A stretch of DNA of 64,000 nucleotides from a virus. Location: IMG/VR virus record IMGVR_UViG_3300023184_000030, positions 1-64,000 of that record; one strand, 5' to 3'. How positions within the stretch are numbered: position 1 is the stretch's first letter; every line of letters starts with the position of its first letter. Positions 8,253 through 21,598 of the stretch are shown here, in pieces. The notes under the pieces were generated by a model, which saw only the letters and a program-made list of their open reading frames with translations, ran no database searches and was not told the DNA's origin. The translations under genes were made by a program, and so were the position numbers.

Positions 8253-10604
8253 TTATTTAGTCCATCCCACGGACTCTATCGAATCCATTACCTGCTTGGC
8301 AGATATTCTTTTAGTGCATTCAAATTGTCTAGATGTTCCTTTATGTTCAGGACACCAGAACCAATCTCCTGGGTCAAATGGGAATTTTTCGGGCGAGTTA
8401 AAACAAGAGTTACAAACGTCTTCTCTATGGATTCTAAGACAATCCTCGTCAAACTCGTTATCTTTTTTAGTTACCCCTGATATCACAACCACCTTTTTAC
8501 CCAATGCATGTGCCACCCAAGATAATCCACTTGAAAGACCTACGAAGAATTCGCAATGTTCTATCCAGTGCATCATTTCTGTAAGTTCCATGCCTGTTTT
8601 ATTCATGCAGTTCTTAGGGATCTCGTTCCAATTTCCCTCCGTACCAAAGCTATAATATCGATCTATGCAAACCGGGGTTAGCCCCTTCTTAGTAAGCATG
8701 TCGCATAATTTTTCCCAGGAATTGTTATTGTTCCAATGCTTAGCCTGTGCAGTACTGTGGCTGGAAAAGCAAACATATTTCTTATTTAGTGGAGAAGGTT
8801 TGCCCGATGTCTTTAGTTGTGGCCTAACTTTGCCCATATCGGCTAATCCTAGCTGTTTAGCGAAGCCTATTTGTAAAGGTAAGTCATAGATATAGTCACA
8901 GCATATAATGTCTGTATAAGCGCTTAAATCGCCTGGCATTTGTATCAGATTCACGTTGGGATATAGATCTTTGTAGAGAAATCCAAAATTACCAACAACA
9001 TCACATTTAATTCCGTGTCTTTTAGCGTATTCGTCTGCATATGGCATGAACGATATGGTATCGCCCAATGCAGCTGTTTTTAAAATTATAAGTGGATTAT
9101 GGGATTTAACATAATTTGGGCTAAAGTAAGATATTATCTGATCTGTGTTTAGTACTCTATAAAATCCAGACTCGTCATCACCATTATATTTAAAATGCGG
9201 TACATAAATGTCTTCAAGGCATTTTGATTTTTCAGATATTGAAGGAATACACTTAGTCGAAGACACAAAGTCCTTGACAATGTCCTTGATGTCGTTTCTT
9301 CTTATATTACCGTCCTCTATTAACACGTGCTGATCTGTTAGATCCATCTTAATTGTTTTTAGAACTTCTGAGCCATCCTTTATAACAATCTCCCAATCGA
9401 TATACTCGTTCCTATCATCAGGAACAGTTGACCAAGCTCTTCTGCTTTTACCGACATTTAAAAATGATTTAATTGATCCGCTTCTAGCATCTCTGAAAAA
9501 TATAGCCTGGCCTTCTCCTTCCGGATATGAACACTTATAAAAATGCGGGTCTCTTTTAAACCAAGAGTAAAATCCATGATCCTCTCTCTTTTCTATTCTC
9601 TTAGGAATTGACAGATAGTCATTAAGTATAAGATTCTTCTGTGATATCTTACCAAATGATGCATAGTCCATCAGCATTCTCGAAACAACAACCTCCCACG
9701 ATATTAGGCTCCTCTCATCTTTACATTCAAGAACATACTGGGAATACCTTTGGAGAACTTCAGAAACACCATCAACTAGATCTACTGTGTTTGCGGTATC
9801 TATTCTTTTCATTCCTTTTAGATCAGCCTCCATTAAACCAACAACAGGAATACCCATCGCTATACTTTCAGTAACTGTTAGGTTAGGATGTCCTGCTTCA
9901 ATAGCTCCTGGATTTAAAAAGACGTGATGTTTTCTTATTTCAGTAAGCGAATCCTCATAATTCATGTCGTATATCACATTGAGTCTTATGTATGATGCTA
10001 TCACATTGTTCTTCTCGAAAAACTCCTTGTTGTTTTTACTAGGGCATATTATTGTTATAGGTAGATTCAGTACTGCTGCACACTCTATGCCTGGAATAAA
10101 TCCCTTTCTGTCGAATAATGGATCTCCTAAAAGACCATTGTTTGCCATCATGACTAAACTTGGACCTTTTTCAATAAGATCTTTGGATCTATCCTCAAAA
10201 TAATAATCTTCCAGATTAGCTCCGTGGCTAAGATATCTTAATTGTGGTAAAGAACCGAAATAATCAACAAGATATTTAGCATGGACAAATGACAGAACAG
10301 ATCCTTTTATAGCTTCCAGATTTTGTTTGTAAACATCAGAATCCTTTCCTAAATGATGTGCATGGTGATCGTGATGGGAAAAAACGTAAGGAATTCCTCT
10401 CTCTTTTAAAAGTAAAGCTAGATTAGCCATGTGTACATGTACAATGTCCCATTCTCCTAACCTAACATCATCCGTGTAAATTATTTCAACCTCATGACCA
10501 AGACCTCTTAATACCTTTGTGTATTCCCAGATTATTTTTTCTACTGCTCCCCATCCGTTAGGTGGTATAGGAATTACCCCTGGTGTGATTTGTGCTATTC
10601 TCAT
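8253..10604 (-). CDS. Fusion: GT4-type glycosyltransferase + autotransporter heptosyltransferase (BAHT/TibC-like) domain
   Basis: N-terminal IPP.GWGAVEK and EAGHPNLTVTES; C-terminal ALGDTI, STAQAKHWNN, FVGLSSGLSWVAH and Fe-ligand-like CNSC...WCP...C. Confidence 0.85.
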   Translation of the reverse strand: MRIAQITPGVIPIPPNGWGAVEKIIWEYTKVLRGLGHEVEIIYTDDVRLGEWDIVHVHMANLALLLKERGIPYVFSHHDHHAHHLGKDSDVYKQNLEAIKGSVLSFVHAKYLVDYFGSLPQLRYLSHGANLEDYYFEDRSKDLIEKGPSLVMMANNGLLGDPLFDRKGFIPGIECAAVLNLPITIICPSKNNKEFFEKNNVIASYIRLNVIYDMNYEDSLTEIRKHHVFLNPGAIEAGHPNLTVTESIAMGIPVVGLMEADLKGMKRIDTANTVDLVDGVSEVLQRYSQYVLECKDERSLISWEVVVSRMLMDYASFGKISQKNLILNDYLSIPKRIEKREDHGFYSWFKRDPHFYKCSYPEGEGQAIFFRDARSGSIKSFLNVGKSRRAWSTVPDDRNEYIDWEIVIKDGSEVLKTIKMDLTDQHVLIEDGNIRRNDIKDIVKDFVSSTKCIPSISEKSKCLEDIYVPHFKYNGDDESGFYRVLNTDQIISYFSPNYVKSHNPLIILKTAALGDTISFMPYADEYAKRHGIKCDVVGNFGFLYKDLYPNVNLIQMPGDLSAYTDIICCDYIYDLPLQIGFAKQLGLADMGKVRPQLKTSGKPSPLNKKYVCFSSHSTAQAKHWNNNNSWEKLCDMLTKKGLTPVCIDRYYSFGTEGNWNEIPKNCMNKTGMELTEMMHWIEHCEFFVGLSSGLSWVAHALGKKVVVISGVTKKDNEFDEDCLRIHREDVCNSCFNSPEKFPFDPGDWFWCPEHKGTSRQFECTKRISAKQVMDSIESVGWTK

Positions 10605-10607
10605 TTC

Positions 10608-12542
10608 TTAACCTTTTCTTTTTGCAAATATTACTCCGTGATCTGCATTTTTATCAACCTCTTTCTGTATTAATTCATCATAAAGCTTAACCGCAAAATC
10701 AGCGCTAACTAATTTTTCTATTAACATATTGACCCTTCCGTCGTTATTGTCGTGGAATTCTAAAATTATATTTTTAGCTTTAGCTAGAGATGCAATATCA
10801 GTTTTATCAAGCAAATCATATTCAGCACCTTCTATATCAATCTTTAATAGATCAACTGAATCATGATCAGACATCAGAGAGTTTAGTGTTTGTGATTTAA
10901 CCAAAACAGTATTCTCACTTATAGTTTTTGCAATGCTAGAAACTAAAGTGTTCCCTGGATTCACGCTAAGATTAACATCCTCGCCGTCACCAGTCAAAGC
11001 AATCTCACTGAAAATAACATTTGGATTTTCCGAGTGCATCTTTCTGAATTCATTAGCTGCTAAAGGATTTGGTTCTATTGAGATAACTTTTTCGAAACCT
11101 ACATCTAAACAATACTCTGTAAATAATCCAACATTAGCACCAACGTCAATAGCAAGTTTCTTTCCGAATATGCTATCCGTCATAATGTCATATATTCGGT
11201 CAGTGAAGAACTCTTCATAATTTCTAAATATAGGATCTTTTGTATCCAATCTGCAAGTCTTCTTTGTTACGTTTCTAAATCTTATTACTGATTCAGAAAT
11301 CACTTCCTCTCCCTGCTTATATTCAATTAAGAATCCACCAAAATTTGGGTTATTTTGGAAATCATAAATATGGATGGGTACTGGAATTATCCAATAAGAT
11401 CCACCTAAACTAAAGTTTATAGTGCAATGGAATATATTAGAACCGCTGTCCACGTCCTTAACATAAACATCACAATTAAGTTCCTTTATGTTTCTTGAAT
11501 CCCCTATATAAACTATATCAAGTTTATTATCCCAAGGGGAAAATTTGTGGATAAACATATCGCTTTTATTATTCATAACTAATTCTTTTTTAGGGTTTAG
11601 TATTTCTCTTATCTGGTTTGCTATCTCTGTCATATCATCACTTCTAAAAAACTTTAGATTTTTTGATTCCTGATACATGTCAACATATACTGAGAGATTT
11701 CTTAGAAGCAGTGGTGCTTTCCAAGATATTGCTTCTTTGATAACAAGTGGACTTGTTTCTTTATCATTAAATAGAGGTATTGATGGGAATATAACAAGAT
11801 CCGCTGCCTGATAGAATAAATCAACATCATCTCTTTCACCCCATACTTTACAATTGGAAGGAAGATTACTTGTGATAGGATTCCAATACCATTTAAAATT
11901 ATCAGCCATTGTACCGATGAAATGAAATTCAACTTCCGGTAGCAATCTTGCAATCTCTGCGGTTTCTCTTTGATTTTTTCTTGGGGTAAATATGCCTATC
12001 TGGATTATGTGTTTCTTATTAGGATCCAATCCAAGTTTTGCCCGGCTATCTAAATAATCTCTTACTGGTTTCTTAGCTATCTCGTGTTCAATAACTTCAA
12101 TTGGTACTTTAAGATCTCTTAATAAGTTAACCTGCCAAGGGCTAACAACAACAAATTTATCAGGGAGATATATTTTTTCTTTAGGAGAAACAGACGAATC
12201 GTGCATGGTCTCGAATATTTTATATTCTCTGTCGTCAGAGAATATAATATCCAGAAGATGGTGGCTTAAGAATTGCTCACATGGTTCTTCGAAATGTATA
12301 ATATCAGGCTTCATCTCCTTGATTGCCTTAATGAGAATATCCTCCGGTTTTTCGCCCCAGGTTATTATTCTCTCCGCACCAAGTATGGATTCTATTCTTT
12401 TCCTGATTGTATTATAGGAAACTTCGTGTCTTTTCTCAAAAACCCAAACTTCCGCTTCGTCTTTGATTTTGTCTATTTTATTCTTTAAATATTCCGGCAT
12501 TCCTCCGGTAGACAGGTAAGGTACAATATAAAAAACTCTCAA
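10608..12542 (-). CDS. Fusion: GT4-type glycosyltransferase + FkbM-family methyltransferase
   Basis: STGGMPEYL, RKNQ, ETSPLVIKEA; C-terminal IDVGANVG, IEPN, LKIDIEGAE, LEFH. Confidence 0.88.
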   Translation of the reverse strand: MRVFYIVPYLSTGGMPEYLKNKIDKIKDEAEVWVFEKRHEVSYNTIRKRIESILGAERIITWGEKPEDILIKAIKEMKPDIIHFEEPCEQFLSHHLLDIIFSDDREYKIFETMHDSSVSPKEKIYLPDKFVVVSPWQVNLLRDLKVPIEVIEHEIAKKPVRDYLDSRAKLGLDPNKKHIIQIGIFTPRKNQRETAEIARLLPEVEFHFIGTMADNFKWYWNPITSNLPSNCKVWGERDDVDLFYQAADLVIFPSIPLFNDKETSPLVIKEAISWKAPLLLRNLSVYVDMYQESKNLKFFRSDDMTEIANQIREILNPKKELVMNNKSDMFIHKFSPWDNKLDIVYIGDSRNIKELNCDVYVKDVDSGSNIFHCTINFSLGGSYWIIPVPIHIYDFQNNPNFGGFLIEYKQGEEVISESVIRFRNVTKKTCRLDTKDPIFRNYEEFFTDRIYDIMTDSIFGKKLAIDVGANVGLFTEYCLDVGFEKVISIEPNPLAANEFRKMHSENPNVIFSEIALTGDGEDVNLSVNPGNTLVSSIAKTISENTVLVKSQTLNSLMSDHDSVDLLKIDIEGAEYDLLDKTDIASLAKAKNIILEFHDNNDGRVNMLIEKLVSADFAVKLYDELIQKEVDKNADHGVIFAKRKG

Positions 12543-12595
12543 TGTTTTGTATTTATAGGTTCTACTGTAAAAGTCAAATAAAATTTCGGGTAAAA

Positions 12596-12618
12596 GTATT
12601 GAAGGGGTGCCTTTGTAC
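12596..12618. repeat. Left arm of 23-nt inverted repeat flanking CDS 12624-13463
   Basis: GTATTGAAGGGGTGCCTTTGTAC pairs with 13541-13563 (22 matches, one bulge per arm). Confidence 0.9.
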
Positions 12619-12623
12619 GAAAT

Positions 12624-13463
12624 TTATTGATCTAGAGATTCGCCACAGTTAGGGCAAAATTTCCATGTTTTTTTCTTGGATCTTGTTCCACATCCTGTAC
12701 AATAATCTCTAATCTCAGTAACCTCTACAGGTTTAACTGATCTTGGAAGAATTTGATACTCTGACGTGTAACTACAATACCAGGAGTAACTACCTGAATC
12801 TTTTCCGAAGTCCTGATCAGATTTTTCACCTTTTTCTACTCTACCGGTTTCAAGCGAACCCGCACCTGAGCAGTTAACTACTCCAGATAAACCAGTAGTA
12901 GTGTAACCAATCGAACTACCGCTTAACGTTGAAGTGTTTGAAGTGTTGGTGAAGTAAACATTAGGTGTAGTATTTACCGTGGTTCCTCCGAAAATAATTG
13001 GATTTACTGTTCCCGGATTGTTCGTCCAAGTTAGGTGATTTGTGTGATAAGGAACATAGGTTGTTCCAGTTGAAAGTGTGCTCCAACTGTAATTTGTGTG
13101 TTCCGGATAGAACTCAACCTTTACCTTACCGTTGTTTTTGATTGCCTCTTTAACCTCATCTGTAGCATCAACATCGTAAGTCGAAAATAAGAATTTCTTC
13201 TTCTCATCGATGAAACGATCCAAGAAGTATCTTTGTCCAGGTCTAAGTACTAAACCCGAGCTACTGATCACCTTGTCGTTGAGATAGATTTTAGCTAAAT
13301 AGGATGTTGATGTTGGATTATAGAGTTCGATTTGAAACTCTTGTCCATTGTCTAGATAAACTAGATCATCCTTTGCGCCGTAGATTTTTTGTCTGTTGTT
13401 GGATACGGCTACCCAAGCTTGTGGTTTTGGAGTACTGTGTACTCCGATTGTGTTGTTTTTCAT
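12624..13463 (-). CDS. Hypothetical protein: beta-rich N-domain, Thr/Ser/Gly linker, C-terminal zinc ribbon
   Basis: CTGCG...FCPNCG at the C-terminus. Confidence 0.8.
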   Translation of the reverse strand: MKNNTIGVHSTPKPQAWVAVSNNRQKIYGAKDDLVYLDNGQEFQIELYNPTSTSYLAKIYLNDKVISSSGLVLRPGQRYFLDRFIDEKKKFLFSTYDVDATDEVKEAIKNNGKVKVEFYPEHTNYSWSTLSTGTTYVPYHTNHLTWTNNPGTVNPIIFGGTTVNTTPNVYFTNTSNTSTLSGSSIGYTTTGLSGVVNCSGAGSLETGRVEKGEKSDQDFGKDSGSYSWYCSYTSEYQILPRSVKPVEVTEIRDYCTGCGTRSKKKTWKFCPNCGESLDQ

Positions 13464-13485
13464 TTACCTTTTTCTTTTTTTTAAA

Positions 13486-13535
13486 ATCCCATCGCTGCTA
13501 TTGCTAACAACTCTAAGGCCATTTTGACCCGGGAC
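13486..13535 (-). ncRNA. Predicted structured 5' leader (three-way junction)
   Basis: P1 GUCCCG/UGGGAU, P2 GGUCA-AAA-UGGCC, P3 GUUGUUA-GCAA-UAGCAGC; junctions UUAGA and GA. Confidence 0.55.
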
Positions 13536-13540
13536 ACTAA

Positions 13541-13563
13541 GTACGAAAGGCACCCTTCAATAC
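13541..13563. repeat. Right arm of 23-nt inverted repeat
   Basis: GTACGAAAGGCACCCTTCAATAC, reverse complement of 12596-12618 apart from two indels. Confidence 0.9.
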
Positions 13564-13587
13564 ATTCTATATATAATCACTGGTTTA

Positions 13588-14073
13588 TTACCAGAAATCA
13601 TCTCCTTCTTGTCCATTCGAAAGATCGTTATAACCTCCGAATGAATTATCATAGTCATCGTCTTCGAATTCTGCATCACTAAAGAATTCTCTTTCTGATT
13701 CAGAAATTCTTTCGAACCAATCACCATTATCTTTATACCAAACAGTGTTTATAGCAGGTGTTCCTGCTGTCCACTCTATTTTTGAATCATTTGATAAACC
13801 CCCTGGTATAATTGAGTCTAAATCATTTACTACTTTTTCCAAATCGTTCTGCAGATCTGTGTCTAATTCTACATCCTCAACGTATATTTCTAAACATCCG
13901 TTGAAGTTAGGTTCCATACAATCAATAAAGATATTATATAAAATAATGAAATCTTCCCTTGATTCCATTAGTAATTTAATATCCAATATCTCTTTAGCTG
14001 TGAACTTATTATTGGTTATTAGCTCCGCATTTAAAATATAATTCTTCATTATTTTTTTAGTTGTATATACCAT
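13588..14073 (-). CDS. Acidic hypothetical protein
   Basis: Packed ORF; the start may be 14049. Confidence 0.6.
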   Translation of the reverse strand: MVYTTKKIMKNYILNAELITNNKFTAKEILDIKLLMESREDFIILYNIFIDCMEPNFNGCLEIYVEDVELDTDLQNDLEKVVNDLDSIIPGGLSNDSKIEWTAGTPAINTVWYKDNGDWFERISESEREFFSDAEFEDDDYDNSFGGYNDLSNGQEGDDFW

Positions 14074-14371: not shown

Positions 14372-14950
14372 TTATATAAAGTTTTGACAAAATGTTTTTC
14401 TGTGATGTTTGGATAAACCAATTTCCCTTATTGCTGAGATGTGTTCTGGTGTACCGTAGCCAACATTCTTTTCCCATAGGTAGTGAGAAAATTCTGGGCT
14501 GATAGATTTCATTAGCCTATCTCTATGAACTTTAGCTAGGATAGATGCTGCGGAGATACACGGTACTTTAGAATCACCTTTTATCACGCACTCGTAATCT
14601 ATTCCTTTATGTCCAGGGAATTTATCCCCATCAACATAAAGAAAATCAGGAACTACCTTACAAGAATCAATAGCTCTTTTCATAGCTAAAAATGTTGCTT
14701 GCAAAATATTAATCTGATCTATCTCCTGTGGCGATGCCGCACCTATTCCCCATGCTATTGCATTTTCTTTTATTAGTGCTTCAACCTCTTCTCTTTTCTT
14801 TAGACTTTTTATAGCTTTGCTATCTTTAATTCTAGGATCAAAGAAATCATTTGGCATGATAACTACTGCAGCAACAACAGGACCACTTAAACAGCCTCTA
14901 CCTACTTCGTCTACCCCGGCGATAAAATTATATTTTGATACGTCTAACAT
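14372..14950 (-). CDS. rnhB: Ribonuclease HII
   Basis: AGVDEVGRGCLSGPV, DSK, KGD....ISAASILAKV.RD, GYGT..H; start moved to ATG 14950. Confidence 0.95.
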   Translation of the reverse strand: MLDVSKYNFIAGVDEVGRGCLSGPVVAAVVIMPNDFFDPRIKDSKAIKSLKKREEVEALIKENAIAWGIGAASPQEIDQINILQATFLAMKRAIDSCKVVPDFLYVDGDKFPGHKGIDYECVIKGDSKVPCISAASILAKVHRDRLMKSISPEFSHYLWEKNVGYGTPEHISAIREIGLSKHHRKTFCQNFI

Positions 14951-14951
14951 A

Positions 14952-16508
14952 TTATGGTTTAAGTGTGGTGAATTCACCTTTAATGAAATTGATGTGCTGA
15001 GCTTTACTGTCATGGTGAATTATCACGTGTGACTGAAGCCATCCGCTAGGACCAATGTTATAATTAACCCTTAGCTTAGTTGATGTACCTACTGCAAGTG
15101 CTCCATCCTTTCTACCTGGTGAATGATAGTGACCAACTACAATTTTAGTATTTAGCTTTCTGAACTGTAATAAAGAACCCCTAGATCCGTTTGAACCAAC
15201 ATCACCATGTTGGGCTAATTCCCATCCATTAACTACTAAACTGTCACTTCTTCCCAGAGTTCTATATTTAGGGTATTTAGCGTTTATTAAATAAGGTATA
15301 ACCCCGTTTGGCGCAGCACCTTTAAGTAGTAATGCACTGTATTCCATATACTCAATGGAATTTTTCATGGTTGAAGCTTTTCTCCAATCTGTTCCTTTTA
15401 GCCATCTGTCTAAGAAGTCATCATGGTTACTTCTAACTATTATAACATTATAATCTTCGAAACTTTTTAATCCATCGAGCATCGCATCGACTTCACCTCT
15501 CAAAGAATTAGTTCCGTCTAATTCTCTTTGATATTGGATAAAAGGGTCTTTTGATTCGTGGTGGTTAATAGAAAGCCCATCAAAGACATCATGCAGAACT
15601 ACGTGATCTGGTTTTAGATTCTTAAATAGATCAAGTGTTTTTGAAATGACCCTTTCGTCATGCTGTCCGTAGTGGATATCACCTAATACAGCAGCTGCAA
15701 TTGAATCAATCTTAGAAACTTTGCCTTCCTCAACTTTATAATATAGATCACAGAAATCTCCATCATCGGTAGCTGTAACTTGTCTGGCAAAAAATGTATT
15801 CGCATCTTTTATCTCCACAACAACAAAACCTAATGTGTGGTGGAATTCCCCCTTCTTTCCTGATTTTGAATCTGTGTAGTTTTTAAGAGTACATGCTCCG
15901 GTGGTCATCATCATCTTCGGAAGATTCCCTTCAAGAACTGGGATTGTTTCCATGTGAACTTTTGGTGATCCAAATACGCAGGAATTAATTCCGCTCATAC
16001 CTTGTAATCCTGTCATTGGGTCTACTGCAGTAGGCTGGATCTTAACATCTGACATGATCCACATATGCTTGTGAACCTCGTGGCGATTGGCATCAAGATA
16101 TATTGCTATTCTATTTGACCATTCGTCGTAACTTTTGTCGGAAAAAACTGAAGTTGGATTTTTATATCTTCCTGCAATGACGTGGATGTCTGCAGCTATC
16201 TCTTTTGCATAAGCCTCAATATTTACTATAAAATCCTCGTGAACTGGTGTATCGTTCTGAGCCCAAGTAATTATAAACCTTTTCTTCTTCTTATCGAATT
16301 TTTTTTCCTTGGCCCTTATGTACTGGGGTGATTCCGTTAGTGCTTTTTCTGTTATACCTAATTTGGAAATCCAGTTTTGGATAGTCCTTTCTGATTTTCC
16401 GATGAGATCACTTAGACTTTTCATTCTCTGATCCCATGTCAAATCCCTGTTCCAGTAAATATCCGACATTTTAGATATTTGCTCGTCGTTTAATTCTTCA
16501 AACTTCAT
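14952..16508 (-). CDS. Calcineurin-like metallophosphoesterase with N-terminal HTH (T5 A1-like nuclease candidate)
   Basis: GDIH, HDVFD, SNHD, QHGD, GHYH motifs; N-terminal LSDLIGKSERTIQNW HTH. Confidence 0.7.
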   Translation of the reverse strand: MKFEELNDEQISKMSDIYWNRDLTWDQRMKSLSDLIGKSERTIQNWISKLGITEKALTESPQYIRAKEKKFDKKKKRFIITWAQNDTPVHEDFIVNIEAYAKEIAADIHVIAGRYKNPTSVFSDKSYDEWSNRIAIYLDANRHEVHKHMWIMSDVKIQPTAVDPMTGLQGMSGINSCVFGSPKVHMETIPVLEGNLPKMMMTTGACTLKNYTDSKSGKKGEFHHTLGFVVVEIKDANTFFARQVTATDDGDFCDLYYKVEEGKVSKIDSIAAAVLGDIHYGQHDERVISKTLDLFKNLKPDHVVLHDVFDGLSINHHESKDPFIQYQRELDGTNSLRGEVDAMLDGLKSFEDYNVIIVRSNHDDFLDRWLKGTDWRKASTMKNSIEYMEYSALLLKGAAPNGVIPYLINAKYPKYRTLGRSDSLVVNGWELAQHGDVGSNGSRGSLLQFRKLNTKIVVGHYHSPGRKDGALAVGTSTKLRVNYNIGPSGWLQSHVIIHHDSKAQHINFIKGEFTTLKP

Positions 16509-16523
16509 TAGCAAGTGTTAAGG

Positions 16524-21130: not shown

Positions 21131-21135
21131 GGGCG

Positions 21136-21598
21136 TGGACCTAGAGAGATTCGAACTCTCGTCTCCTTCAGTTAATACTAAGAATTCATTCACAGGCTTA
21201 GAAAGTTTTTTATAAACTTACAAACTAATCTGGTTTATGACACCAGCAAACATTTTGCTGTCTTTTAGTGACTTACAGCGTCAGTCAGAGAACTTATACT
21301 AACAGCGATCTTAAGGGTATTGATATTATCTCAGGGTTACTGATCATAAGCTCTACTTTTTTGGTACTGTTAACCCTTTTTCCCAACGTCACATTTTTTT
21401 AAACGGAGTAAGTGAGACTCCGGAGGTTATGCAGCGTAAGCGTACTCAACCTCAGCTACAGGTGCACCAAACATGTTGATAACGTCCCAAACTGATTTTT
21501 TGCCATTTATAGCGTTATATAGGTTATTAAAGTGTTTCCAATACTAACACTGCCTGCATTCAAAGAACTACGCCTGCGGATCAATTCCGGTTAGGCCC
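21136..21598 (-). ncRNA. ssrA: tmRNA (transfer-messenger RNA), about 463 nt, tag GKKSVWDVINMFGAPVAEVEYAYAA
   Basis: 5' GGGCCUA pairs with 3' UAGGUCC-A (G3:U70 Ala identity); T-arm GAGAG-UUCGAAU-CUCUC; AUAAAU-GGC resume context; tag ORF 21504-21427 ending YAA; CCA not encoded. Confidence 0.9.

Follow-up and report, generated by a model that had tools for sequence, protein, structure and literature searches.

Autoregulatory operators in mRNA leaders include the pseudoknot in the leader of T4 gene 32 and the leaders of ribosomal-protein genes, for example, the three-way junction of S15. Autoregulatory leaders of both kinds, those of T4 gp32 and of the ribosomal proteins, are linked exclusively to one gene family. 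The T4 gp32 operator is summarized in PMC10690425, the main text of which also reports 10,006 unnamed candidate structured RNAs from IMG/VR, as leaders within 25 nt of viral genes. For hbs of B. subtilis, pairing between the 5' and 3' untranslated regions is described as modulating cleavage by RNase Y (Braun, Durand, and Condon 2017, PMC5737220). The k-junction is a three-way junction in which the third helix is located on the nonbulged strand, opposite the loop (Li et al. 2023, PMC10573300). k-junctions occur in TPP riboswitches (PMC10573300), and those named here for comparison are the TPP riboswitches of Arabidopsis and E. coli and the DUF-3268 RNA, all from work of the Lilley laboratory (PMC4005666, PMC10573300).

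The window analyzed here covers positions 1 to 64,000 of a 172,849-bp phage record of IMG/VR, which is estimated to be 63% complete. Its G+C content is 35%, and the minus strand carries nearly all genes. A three-way-junction RNA, the Y element, is located within the 124-nt gap that leads from the ORF at 13588-14073 to the ORF at 12624-13463 (minus strand), which encodes the protein P0001 (Table 1). The Y element shares with the autoregulatory operators its location in the leader of one gene, a conservation better than that of the gene, and a position at the edge of the ribosome-binding site. It differs from the T4 gp32 and S15 operators in its fold, and no rRNA or other natural target for mimicry was found in 121 genomes of one bacterial order. 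The Y element belongs to the known class of structured leaders, in which it forms a new RNA family with an unusual end-paired setting. The main text of PMC10690425 mentions neither huge phages nor zinc-ribbon genes nor a three-way junction, and the Y motif may be among its unnamed candidates. The literature searched on Lak and other huge phages does not mention the element.

Table 1. Positions in the window of the Y element, the parts of its message, and the neighboring genes
Feature	Positions	Strand	Remarks
phrog_1745 "DNA transfer protein" relative	14952-16514	-	1e-148; neighbor gene
RNase HII gene	14372-15013	-	PF01351, 1.9e-36; neighbor of leader gene
Promoter-like box TATATATAG	13567-13575	-	Just 5' of presumed transcript
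5' arm GUAUUGAAGGGUGCCUUUCGUAC, 23 nt, likely mRNA 5' end	13541-13563	-	Pairs with 3' arm; directly before P1
P1 5' strand, UUAG-U-GUCCC	13531-13540	-	9/9 pairs changed on both sides; 96.5% of cells paired
P2 hairpin, GGGUC(A)-AAA-(U)GGCCU	13516-13530	-	No linker after P1; neighboring pairs covary
J2/3, U-A-G-A, consensus U-N-G-A	13512-13515	-	U, G, A invariant in 48/48 distinct A5 sequences
P3 hairpin, GUUGUUA-GCAA-UAGCAGC	13494-13511	-	7/7 pairs with double changes; loop variable
J3/1, G-A-U, consensus R-A-N	13491-13493	-	A in 48/48; first base G/A in 46/48
P1 3' strand, GGGAU-U-UUAA	13481-13490	-	Partner of 13531-13540
A-rich unpaired linker with ribosome-binding region	13464-13480	-	Open in whole-mRNA MFE and centroid
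CDS of P0001, 279 aa: beta-sandwich, disordered S/T/N/G-rich insert, C-terminal zinc ribbon	12624-13463	-	
3' arm GUACAAAGGCACCCCUUCAAUAC, 23 nt	12596-12618	-	Begins 5 nt past stop codon; then UUUU
Two large multidomain glycosyltransferase genes, one with FkbM methyltransferase domain	8253-12542	-	Neighbors

Several other signals were observed around the gene. The hairpin CUGGU-AAUAA-ACCAG in UGAUUUCUGGUAAUAAACCAGUGAUUA (13590-13616, minus strand) straddles the stop codon of the upstream ORF at 13588-14073 and is kept in near relatives; it is possibly the end of the upstream transcript. The sequence TATAAATA at 12552-12559 (minus strand), approximately 37 nt past the 3' arm, is that of the T4 late-promoter consensus and also lies approximately 10 nt upstream of the listed TTG start of the ORF at 10608-12542. 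Judging from this sequence, a separate promoter for the glycosyltransferase/FkbM-methyltransferase gene is possible. Farther away, at 21133-21598 (minus strand), a match to the full Rfam tmRNA model that is barely above the gathering score (49.3 bits versus 47; E = 1.9e-16) marks a candidate phage-encoded tmRNA; ARAGORN reported neither a tmRNA nor a tRNA in the whole window. Among the relatives, L069 has four Rfam tRNA hits at positions 75 to 403 with the leader directly downstream, and in L091, upstream of position 481, the 3' end of a tRNA (GGTTCGAATCC) stands directly before the leader. Since tRNA genes precede the leader in some relatives, the neighborhood of gene plus leader is not conserved across families.

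A preliminary description of this DNA, made by eye, had folded the minus strand of the element into three helices. The minus strand of 13486-13535 is exactly the sequence quoted there, and RNAfold returned the three-helix fold as both the minimum free energy (MFE) and the centroid structure, at -17.1 kcal/mol. Shuffled sequences gave -10.7 ± 2.5 kcal/mol (z = -2.57), and 6 of 200 shuffles reached the native energy. The single-sequence fold is therefore only moderately better than chance and suggestive, and the proof is given by the comparative data. The plus strand of the element yielded -5.1 kcal/mol (z = +1.0) and no such fold, indicating that only the transcribed strand folds in this way. 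This agrees with the earlier remark that the G-U pairs fit the transcribed strand only, the wobbles being mismatches on the other strand.

Homologous leaders were gathered from 17 and then 80 further IMG/VR loci, 10 huge phages in GenBank, and 6 MAG contigs. The leader was nearly identical at 59% protein identity, indicating that it is conserved better than the coding sequence. For an alignment of 20 near relatives made with MAFFT, RNAalifold predicted the same fold, with compensatory changes in 11 of the 21 pairs. A covariance model with a 20-sequence seed (R1) found one match per locus, always immediately 5' of a gene of the P0001 family, and did so in nonseed families as well (E = 2e-8 to 0.06). 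The model rebuilt on 48 sequences (R2) gave a single match in 94 of 98 related loci, each just 5' of a P0001-family gene, and newly recovered L043, L094, L126 to L129, and L131. Only one match was found in the whole 173-kb record, one in a 462-kb phage, and one each in MAGs of 4.2 Mb and 2.5 Mb; each of these matches lies at the same gene. The Lak leaders were recovered by neither R1 nor R2. Read by eye, they contain the same Y, with a P1 of 10 to 11 bp, G-C as the third P2 pair, UUGA as J2/3, U.G as the fifth P3 pair, and GAA as J3/1.

In the alignment of 58 distinct sequences, which is model fitted and thus leans towards structure, standard pairs filled 95.3% of the pair cells, compared with 69.3 ± 0.8% when partners were shuffled; the independent MAFFT result agrees, as does a control in which the partners were slid by 1 to 3 columns and pairing fell to 39 to 50%. 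Changes on both sides were found in 19 of the 21 pairs (327 cells), including every pair of P1 and P3. About a quarter of the pair cells in Y were G.U, among them near-invariant wobbles. These results demonstrate a conserved, strand-specific, single-copy, gene-linked RNA structure in the 5' leader.

Structural conservation in homologous leaders was what the preliminary description had named as the test of its fold, and the three helices were found conserved in the 94 loci. The Rfam search that it had proposed was also run. No Rfam 15 model, including DUF3268, TPP, hammerhead, and phage motifs, matched the element in the window at the gathering score or at an E of ≤10, and no match at an E of ≤0.1 was obtained over the element in 15 homologous loci. 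The proposal of a candidate new cis-regulatory motif or protein-binding site is thus supported by the covariation, the strand specificity, the linkage to one gene, and the lack of an Rfam match. R2 was further run on 121 genomes of one bacterial order, that of the MAG named Bacteroides, and matched nothing but the phage contig and, weakly, one site inside a coding sequence, which was judged to be a chance match. Mimicry of a host RNA was rejected on this result.

The comparative data altered the first picture of the element in several details. P1 was confirmed as a helix, but it has 9 to 10 bp with one U.U mismatch (13540-13531 with 13490-13481) rather than 5 bp, and its four outer pairs all covary. 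The distance of 22 nt to the AUG given earlier is correct for the 5-bp P1, whereas the true foot of P1 is 17 nt away. The linker of that length in the window is A rich in all families and mostly 16 to 24 nt long; in L037 and the Lak phages, the distance to the AUG is longer, about 40 nt. The GCAA loop of P3, singled out at first as a GNRA tetraloop, is incidental, as the loop differs in sequence and length among the homologs.

Within P2, the pair G13528-C13518 is near-invariant (G-C in 57 of 58 distinct sequences), and the next pair, U13527.G13519 in the window, is U.G or U-A in the family. The pairs adjoining G13528-C13518 covary (GC/AU; GU/GC/CG/AU), and so does the closing pair G13530.U13516 (GU in 27, GC in 16, CG in 9, and AU in 3 sequences). 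If this covarying closing pair forms, only 2 loop nt remain before the invariant GA; a 3-nt bulge would need the pair to be open. The fifth pair of P3, U13507.G13498, is a U.G wobble in 56 of 58 distinct sequences. Overall, the invariant bases are few, with about five unpaired ones in the two junction strands, and three near-invariant pairs are located in P2 and P3.

The likeness to a k-junction lies in the three-way junction, in which P3 is extended by G-A opposite (G/A)-A. P1 enters between the A of J3/1 (position 1n) and the 5' strand of P2 (position -1n), with one connecting nucleotide, which is the k-junction topology, and this position of the third helix is fixed by covarying helices. 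A k-junction has tandem G:A and A:G pairs beside its NC helix (G1b, A2b, A1n, and G2n) and a kinked geometry, with hydrogen bonds from 2'-OH groups to adenine N1 across the strands and with folding induced by ions or proteins. The equivalents of G1b, A2b, and A1n are invariant in Y (48 of 48 sequences), as they are in TPP k-junctions, and at position 2n, 22 of the 48 sequences have G, 24 have A, and 2 have U, a matter of sequence compatibility only. P1 abuts P2 without a linker, which would permit coaxial stacking of the C/T type. In contrast, the standard k-junction loop, L1 to L3, has three or more nucleotides, while that of Y has 2 (U-N). Of the kink-turn or k-junction likeness in the preliminary description, the GA/GA opposition therefore stands, as an invariant G-A opposite R-A, and the 3-nt bulge does not. 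The Y element may be called k-junction-like; the full k-turn or k-junction label is unproven, because the loop has 2 nt instead of 3 and the likeness is seen at the level of sequence. An L7Ae-type k-turn binder (PF01248) was not matched within the 63%-complete record.

Two known types of RNA were considered for the element and rejected. A hammerhead has CUGAUGA and GAAA cores on either side of stem II and a cleavage nucleotide between stems III and I; in Y, only U-N-G-A precedes P3 and there is no nucleotide between P1 and P2. An intrinsic terminator or attenuator would depend on the U tract after P1, but the UUUU at this position is found in the near family only, and other families have, for example, GAGC-AAAAA.

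The gene downstream of the Y element encodes a protein that was modeled by AlphaFold with a pLDDT of about 80 in the ordered parts. The predicted beta-sandwich comprises residues 10 to 122 and is completed by strands 204 to 210 and 232 to 240. P0001 had only subthreshold hits in Pfam, to C-terminal zinc ribbons, no match in PHROGs, and no significant match in NCBIfam. Foldseek against the PDB and VIA-wide indicated a generic Ig/MSP-like sandwich (Z ≤ 6.6), and in a PDB sequence profile search, the zinc ribbon resembled those of bL33 and Csl4 below significance (E = 0.25 to 0.6). No recognized RNA-binding domain was found in the Pfam, structure, and profile searches. The P0001 family comprises 1,377 protein clusters at an E of ≤1e-3 and more than 481 IMG/VR loci. 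Its members include proteins of the Prevotella Lak megaphages and of the 460- to 735-kb LR7565xx phages, with 32 to 47% identity.

In BFVD, Foldseek matched P0001 to uncharacterized proteins of eukaryotic large DNA viruses with a probability of 1.0 and an E of 4e-9 to 1e-3, although the TM-scores were only 0.3 to 0.43. The matches were from Marseillevirus, Mimiviridae, Pithovirus, an iridovirus (ORF098), a ranavirus (ICP-18), nudiviruses, and the nimavirus Wsv390 family. This likeness between predicted structures may stem from a common sandwich-plus-zinc-ribbon layout or from membership in a deep viral family. For four relatives, P0040, P0060, P0077, and P0115, the public gene calls start upstream, and the leader is translated (...DGILKNKKGKMK...). 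These N-terminal extensions are probably misannotations that run through the RNA element.

The putative promoter of the gene is a TATATA-type box. Of 15 occurrences of the motif ATATATAR in the window, 13 are on the coding strand, and in six cases an ATG of another gene follows 15 to 23 nt downstream. As these six other boxed genes have only 15 to 23 nt between box and ATG, the 103-nt leader of the P0001 gene is exceptional in this phage. Of the 61 distinct leaders of homologs, 38 have a TATA[TA]A[ATG] box at 87 to 123 nt (median, 102 nt) upstream of the ATG, and the 5' arm starts about 3 to 12 nt past the box.

The two arms of the window, 13541-13563 and 12596-12618, can form 22 bp with two bulges, and on their own they are unremarkable among the chance repeats in 64 kb. 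In most families, the sequence immediately 5' of P1 can pair with one that begins 3 to 25 nt (mostly 3 to 10 nt) past the stop codon. The sequences of the arms differ between families, and the complementarity recurs at the same two places, with exact-match cores that include GAGCCUCGCUCU, AAAAGCCUCGUGUGGC, AAGUGGUGCCUAAC, UCUCACUUUGUU, and UUUAUAGCUGUUCG. Pairing of the leader with sequence past the stop codon is thus supported in most families rather than in a single sequence, and it was not seen in Lak. The energy of the arm duplexes averaged -28.5 kcal/mol for matched partners and -16.2 kcal/mol for mismatched ones. The pairs are nearly all Watson-Crick, and the antisense reading of the duplexes averaged -27.2 kcal/mol. 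When sense and antisense readings were compared, there were 15 interior G.U pairs and 2 A.C mismatches; this excess of G.U gives modest support for selection on the arms at the RNA level, the counts not being phylogenetically independent.

The fold of the whole 977-nt mRNA (12590-13566, minus strand) contained the end pairing, the Y element, and an open start region in both the MFE and the centroid structures. Its z score was -5.5 relative to dinucleotide shuffles, none of 20 shuffles being as good, which suggests extra structure inside the coding region. The 3' untranslated region alone folded weakly (-8.3 kcal/mol; z = -1.0), and a local terminator hairpin at the 3' arm was therefore rejected. 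The 5' arm can alternatively form a local hairpin, so that the end-paired and local-hairpin states may alternate. Anti-Shine-Dalgarno pairing of GCCUUU in the 5' arm with AAAGGU before the AUG, which appeared in a 161-nt fold, was also rejected, because AAGGU is absent in many families and the full-mRNA fold leaves the start region open. In the Lak phages, convincing end pairing was not seen, and a local terminator was found instead. Since Lak keeps the Y element without end pairing, Y is the universal part and has a role of its own.

Like hbs, as described in PMC5737220, the phage message is a short, presumably well-expressed mRNA with a structured leader, beside which a long-range helix connects leader and post-stop sequences. 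The helix has 14 bp in hbs and about 22 bp in the phage message. Unlike hbs, the present case concerns a phage gene, with covariation across many genomes and an adjoining Y junction.

The Y element probably acts in cis on the P0001 mRNA, and it most likely controls the translation and/or lifetime of this one message. In the reading preferred here, which is given a probability of about 0.42, Y would be a protein-binding operator on the P0001 mRNA and, most simply, would serve the autoregulation of P0001. Transcription would start a few bases past the TATATA box, and the first 23 nt would form a helix with 23 nt past the stop codon; on its 5' strand, this helix would run without a break into the 10-bp P1. 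P1 would bear the Y junction, with P2 stacked directly on P1 and with the invariant G-A opposite R-A extending P3. At 17 nt from the AUG, the foot of P1 would mark the 5' edge of the position taken by the 30S subunit, and the A-rich stretch with the ribosome-binding site would be single-stranded. The junction, together with the fixed U.G in P3 and the G-C/U.G in P2, would be where a protein docks; the zinc-ribbon protein P0001 itself is the simplest candidate. Binding would set the initiation rate and/or the lifetime of the P0001 mRNA, as in an autoregulatory operator, and the end pairing may protect both ends of the mRNA.

A protein-binding operator is favored because the few invariant bases are clustered in the junction, with fixed distances along P2 and P3, because Y borders the ribosome footprint on its 5' side, and because it is linked exclusively to one family down to about 33% protein identity. 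Such a pattern of invariant bases points to a site of protein or tertiary contact rather than to a metabolite pocket. Also in favor are the covariation, the single copy per genome, the conservation of the leader beyond that of the coding sequence, the retention of Y in Lak, the open ribosome-binding region in the whole-mRNA fold, and the short leaders of the other boxed genes; the lack of a recognized RNA-binding domain in P0001 counts against this reading. In the predicted folds, the start codon is not occluded by Y, and any repression would therefore be steric.

The end pairing raises the alternative of a ligand-free architecture, in which Y would cap and nucleate the end-pairing helix and bury both termini of a heavily used message against 5'-end-dependent and 3' exonucleolytic decay while the A-rich start region stays open. 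The complementarity of the arms despite their differing sequences, the greater stability of the matched duplexes, the prevalence of interior G.U pairs over A.C mismatches, the presence of both structures in the full-mRNA folds, the start of the 5' arm so close to the box, and the precedent of hbs as described in PMC5737220 are all in keeping with it. A structural role of this kind explains the helices, but it explains the invariant junction bases less well, leaving the U, G, and A of J2/3, the A of J3/1, and the fixed U.G of P3 without a reason; it does not account for the absence of the element from the other genes of the phage, and Lak combines Y with a local terminator. It is thus considered rather unlikely. 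Y and the end pairing might also form a prokaryotic "closed-loop" mRNA device. The continuous helix would then hold the stop codon and the start region next to each other, at distances of 5 nt from the 3' arm and 17 nt from P1, respectively, and the k-junction-like Y operator would gate reinitiation via the zinc-ribbon protein or a ribosome-associated factor; this elaboration is regarded as decidedly doubtful. The position of the end of P1, 16 to 24 nt upstream of the AUG in most families and followed by an open A-rich tract, would suit a translation enhancer or standby site that recruits a ribosomal component or a phage translation factor in a host with little Shine-Dalgarno use, and the relatives are indeed Prevotella-infecting Lak phages and MAG bins named Bacteroides and Cytophagaceae. 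An enhancer restricted to one gene per genome is unlikely, however, and the greater AUG distance in L037 and Lak and the lack of detectable host-RNA likeness in the 121 genomes of one bacterial order also speak against it.

A riboswitch, with the junction binding a small molecule or an ion, is suggested by the compact three-way junction with its invariant bases and by the occurrence of k-junctions in TPP riboswitches (PMC10573300). The unpaired invariant bases are only about five, though, the ribosome-binding site is never sequestered, no alternative expression-platform pairing to it or to a terminator was seen, and the U run following P1 is confined to the near family. Linkage to a single nonmetabolic gene and the lack of an Rfam riboswitch match make this reading improbable. 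The location of Y immediately after the promoter-like box is what would be expected of a promoter-proximal RNA acting on RNA polymerase, as in put-like processive antitermination, or of another transcription-level signal. Such a function is very improbable for an element that keeps its place relative to the start codon and the gene and not relative to a terminator-bearing operon, and the next downstream gene in the window has its own upstream region. The arms, being nearly all Watson-Crick and of similar energy in sense and antisense readings, could in principle flank an invertible or mobile cassette as its inverted repeats, the RNA fold being incidental. This DNA-level explanation is scarcely credible, since the many G.U pairs of Y would be mismatches on the other strand, the orientation to the upstream box is the same in all 98 loci, with no inverted variant, and no recombinase was seen nearby. 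The remaining probability is assigned to mechanisms outside those listed.

To our knowledge, almost nothing is known about gene regulation in uncultured huge phages and megaphages. The Y element is a high-confidence structured RNA that occurs once per genome, in huge-phage genomes whose number is put here at hundreds, the model scan comprising 98 loci. The genomes that carry it range from about 250 kb, in environmental phages, to 540 kb, in the Lak phages from human and animal guts. The seed alignments A5 and A6 provide a new family that is ready for Rfam, and the element gives a handle on the function of the conserved P0001 protein. Together with the end pairing, it offers a rare natural case for effects of 5'-3' communication on the stability and translation of a bacterial-type mRNA. 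If the k-junction is real, this would be only the third known natural context of the motif and the first in a virus. A closed-loop device, if true, would represent translational control of a kind undescribed in the messages of phages or bacteria, and one that megaphage lineages have conserved.
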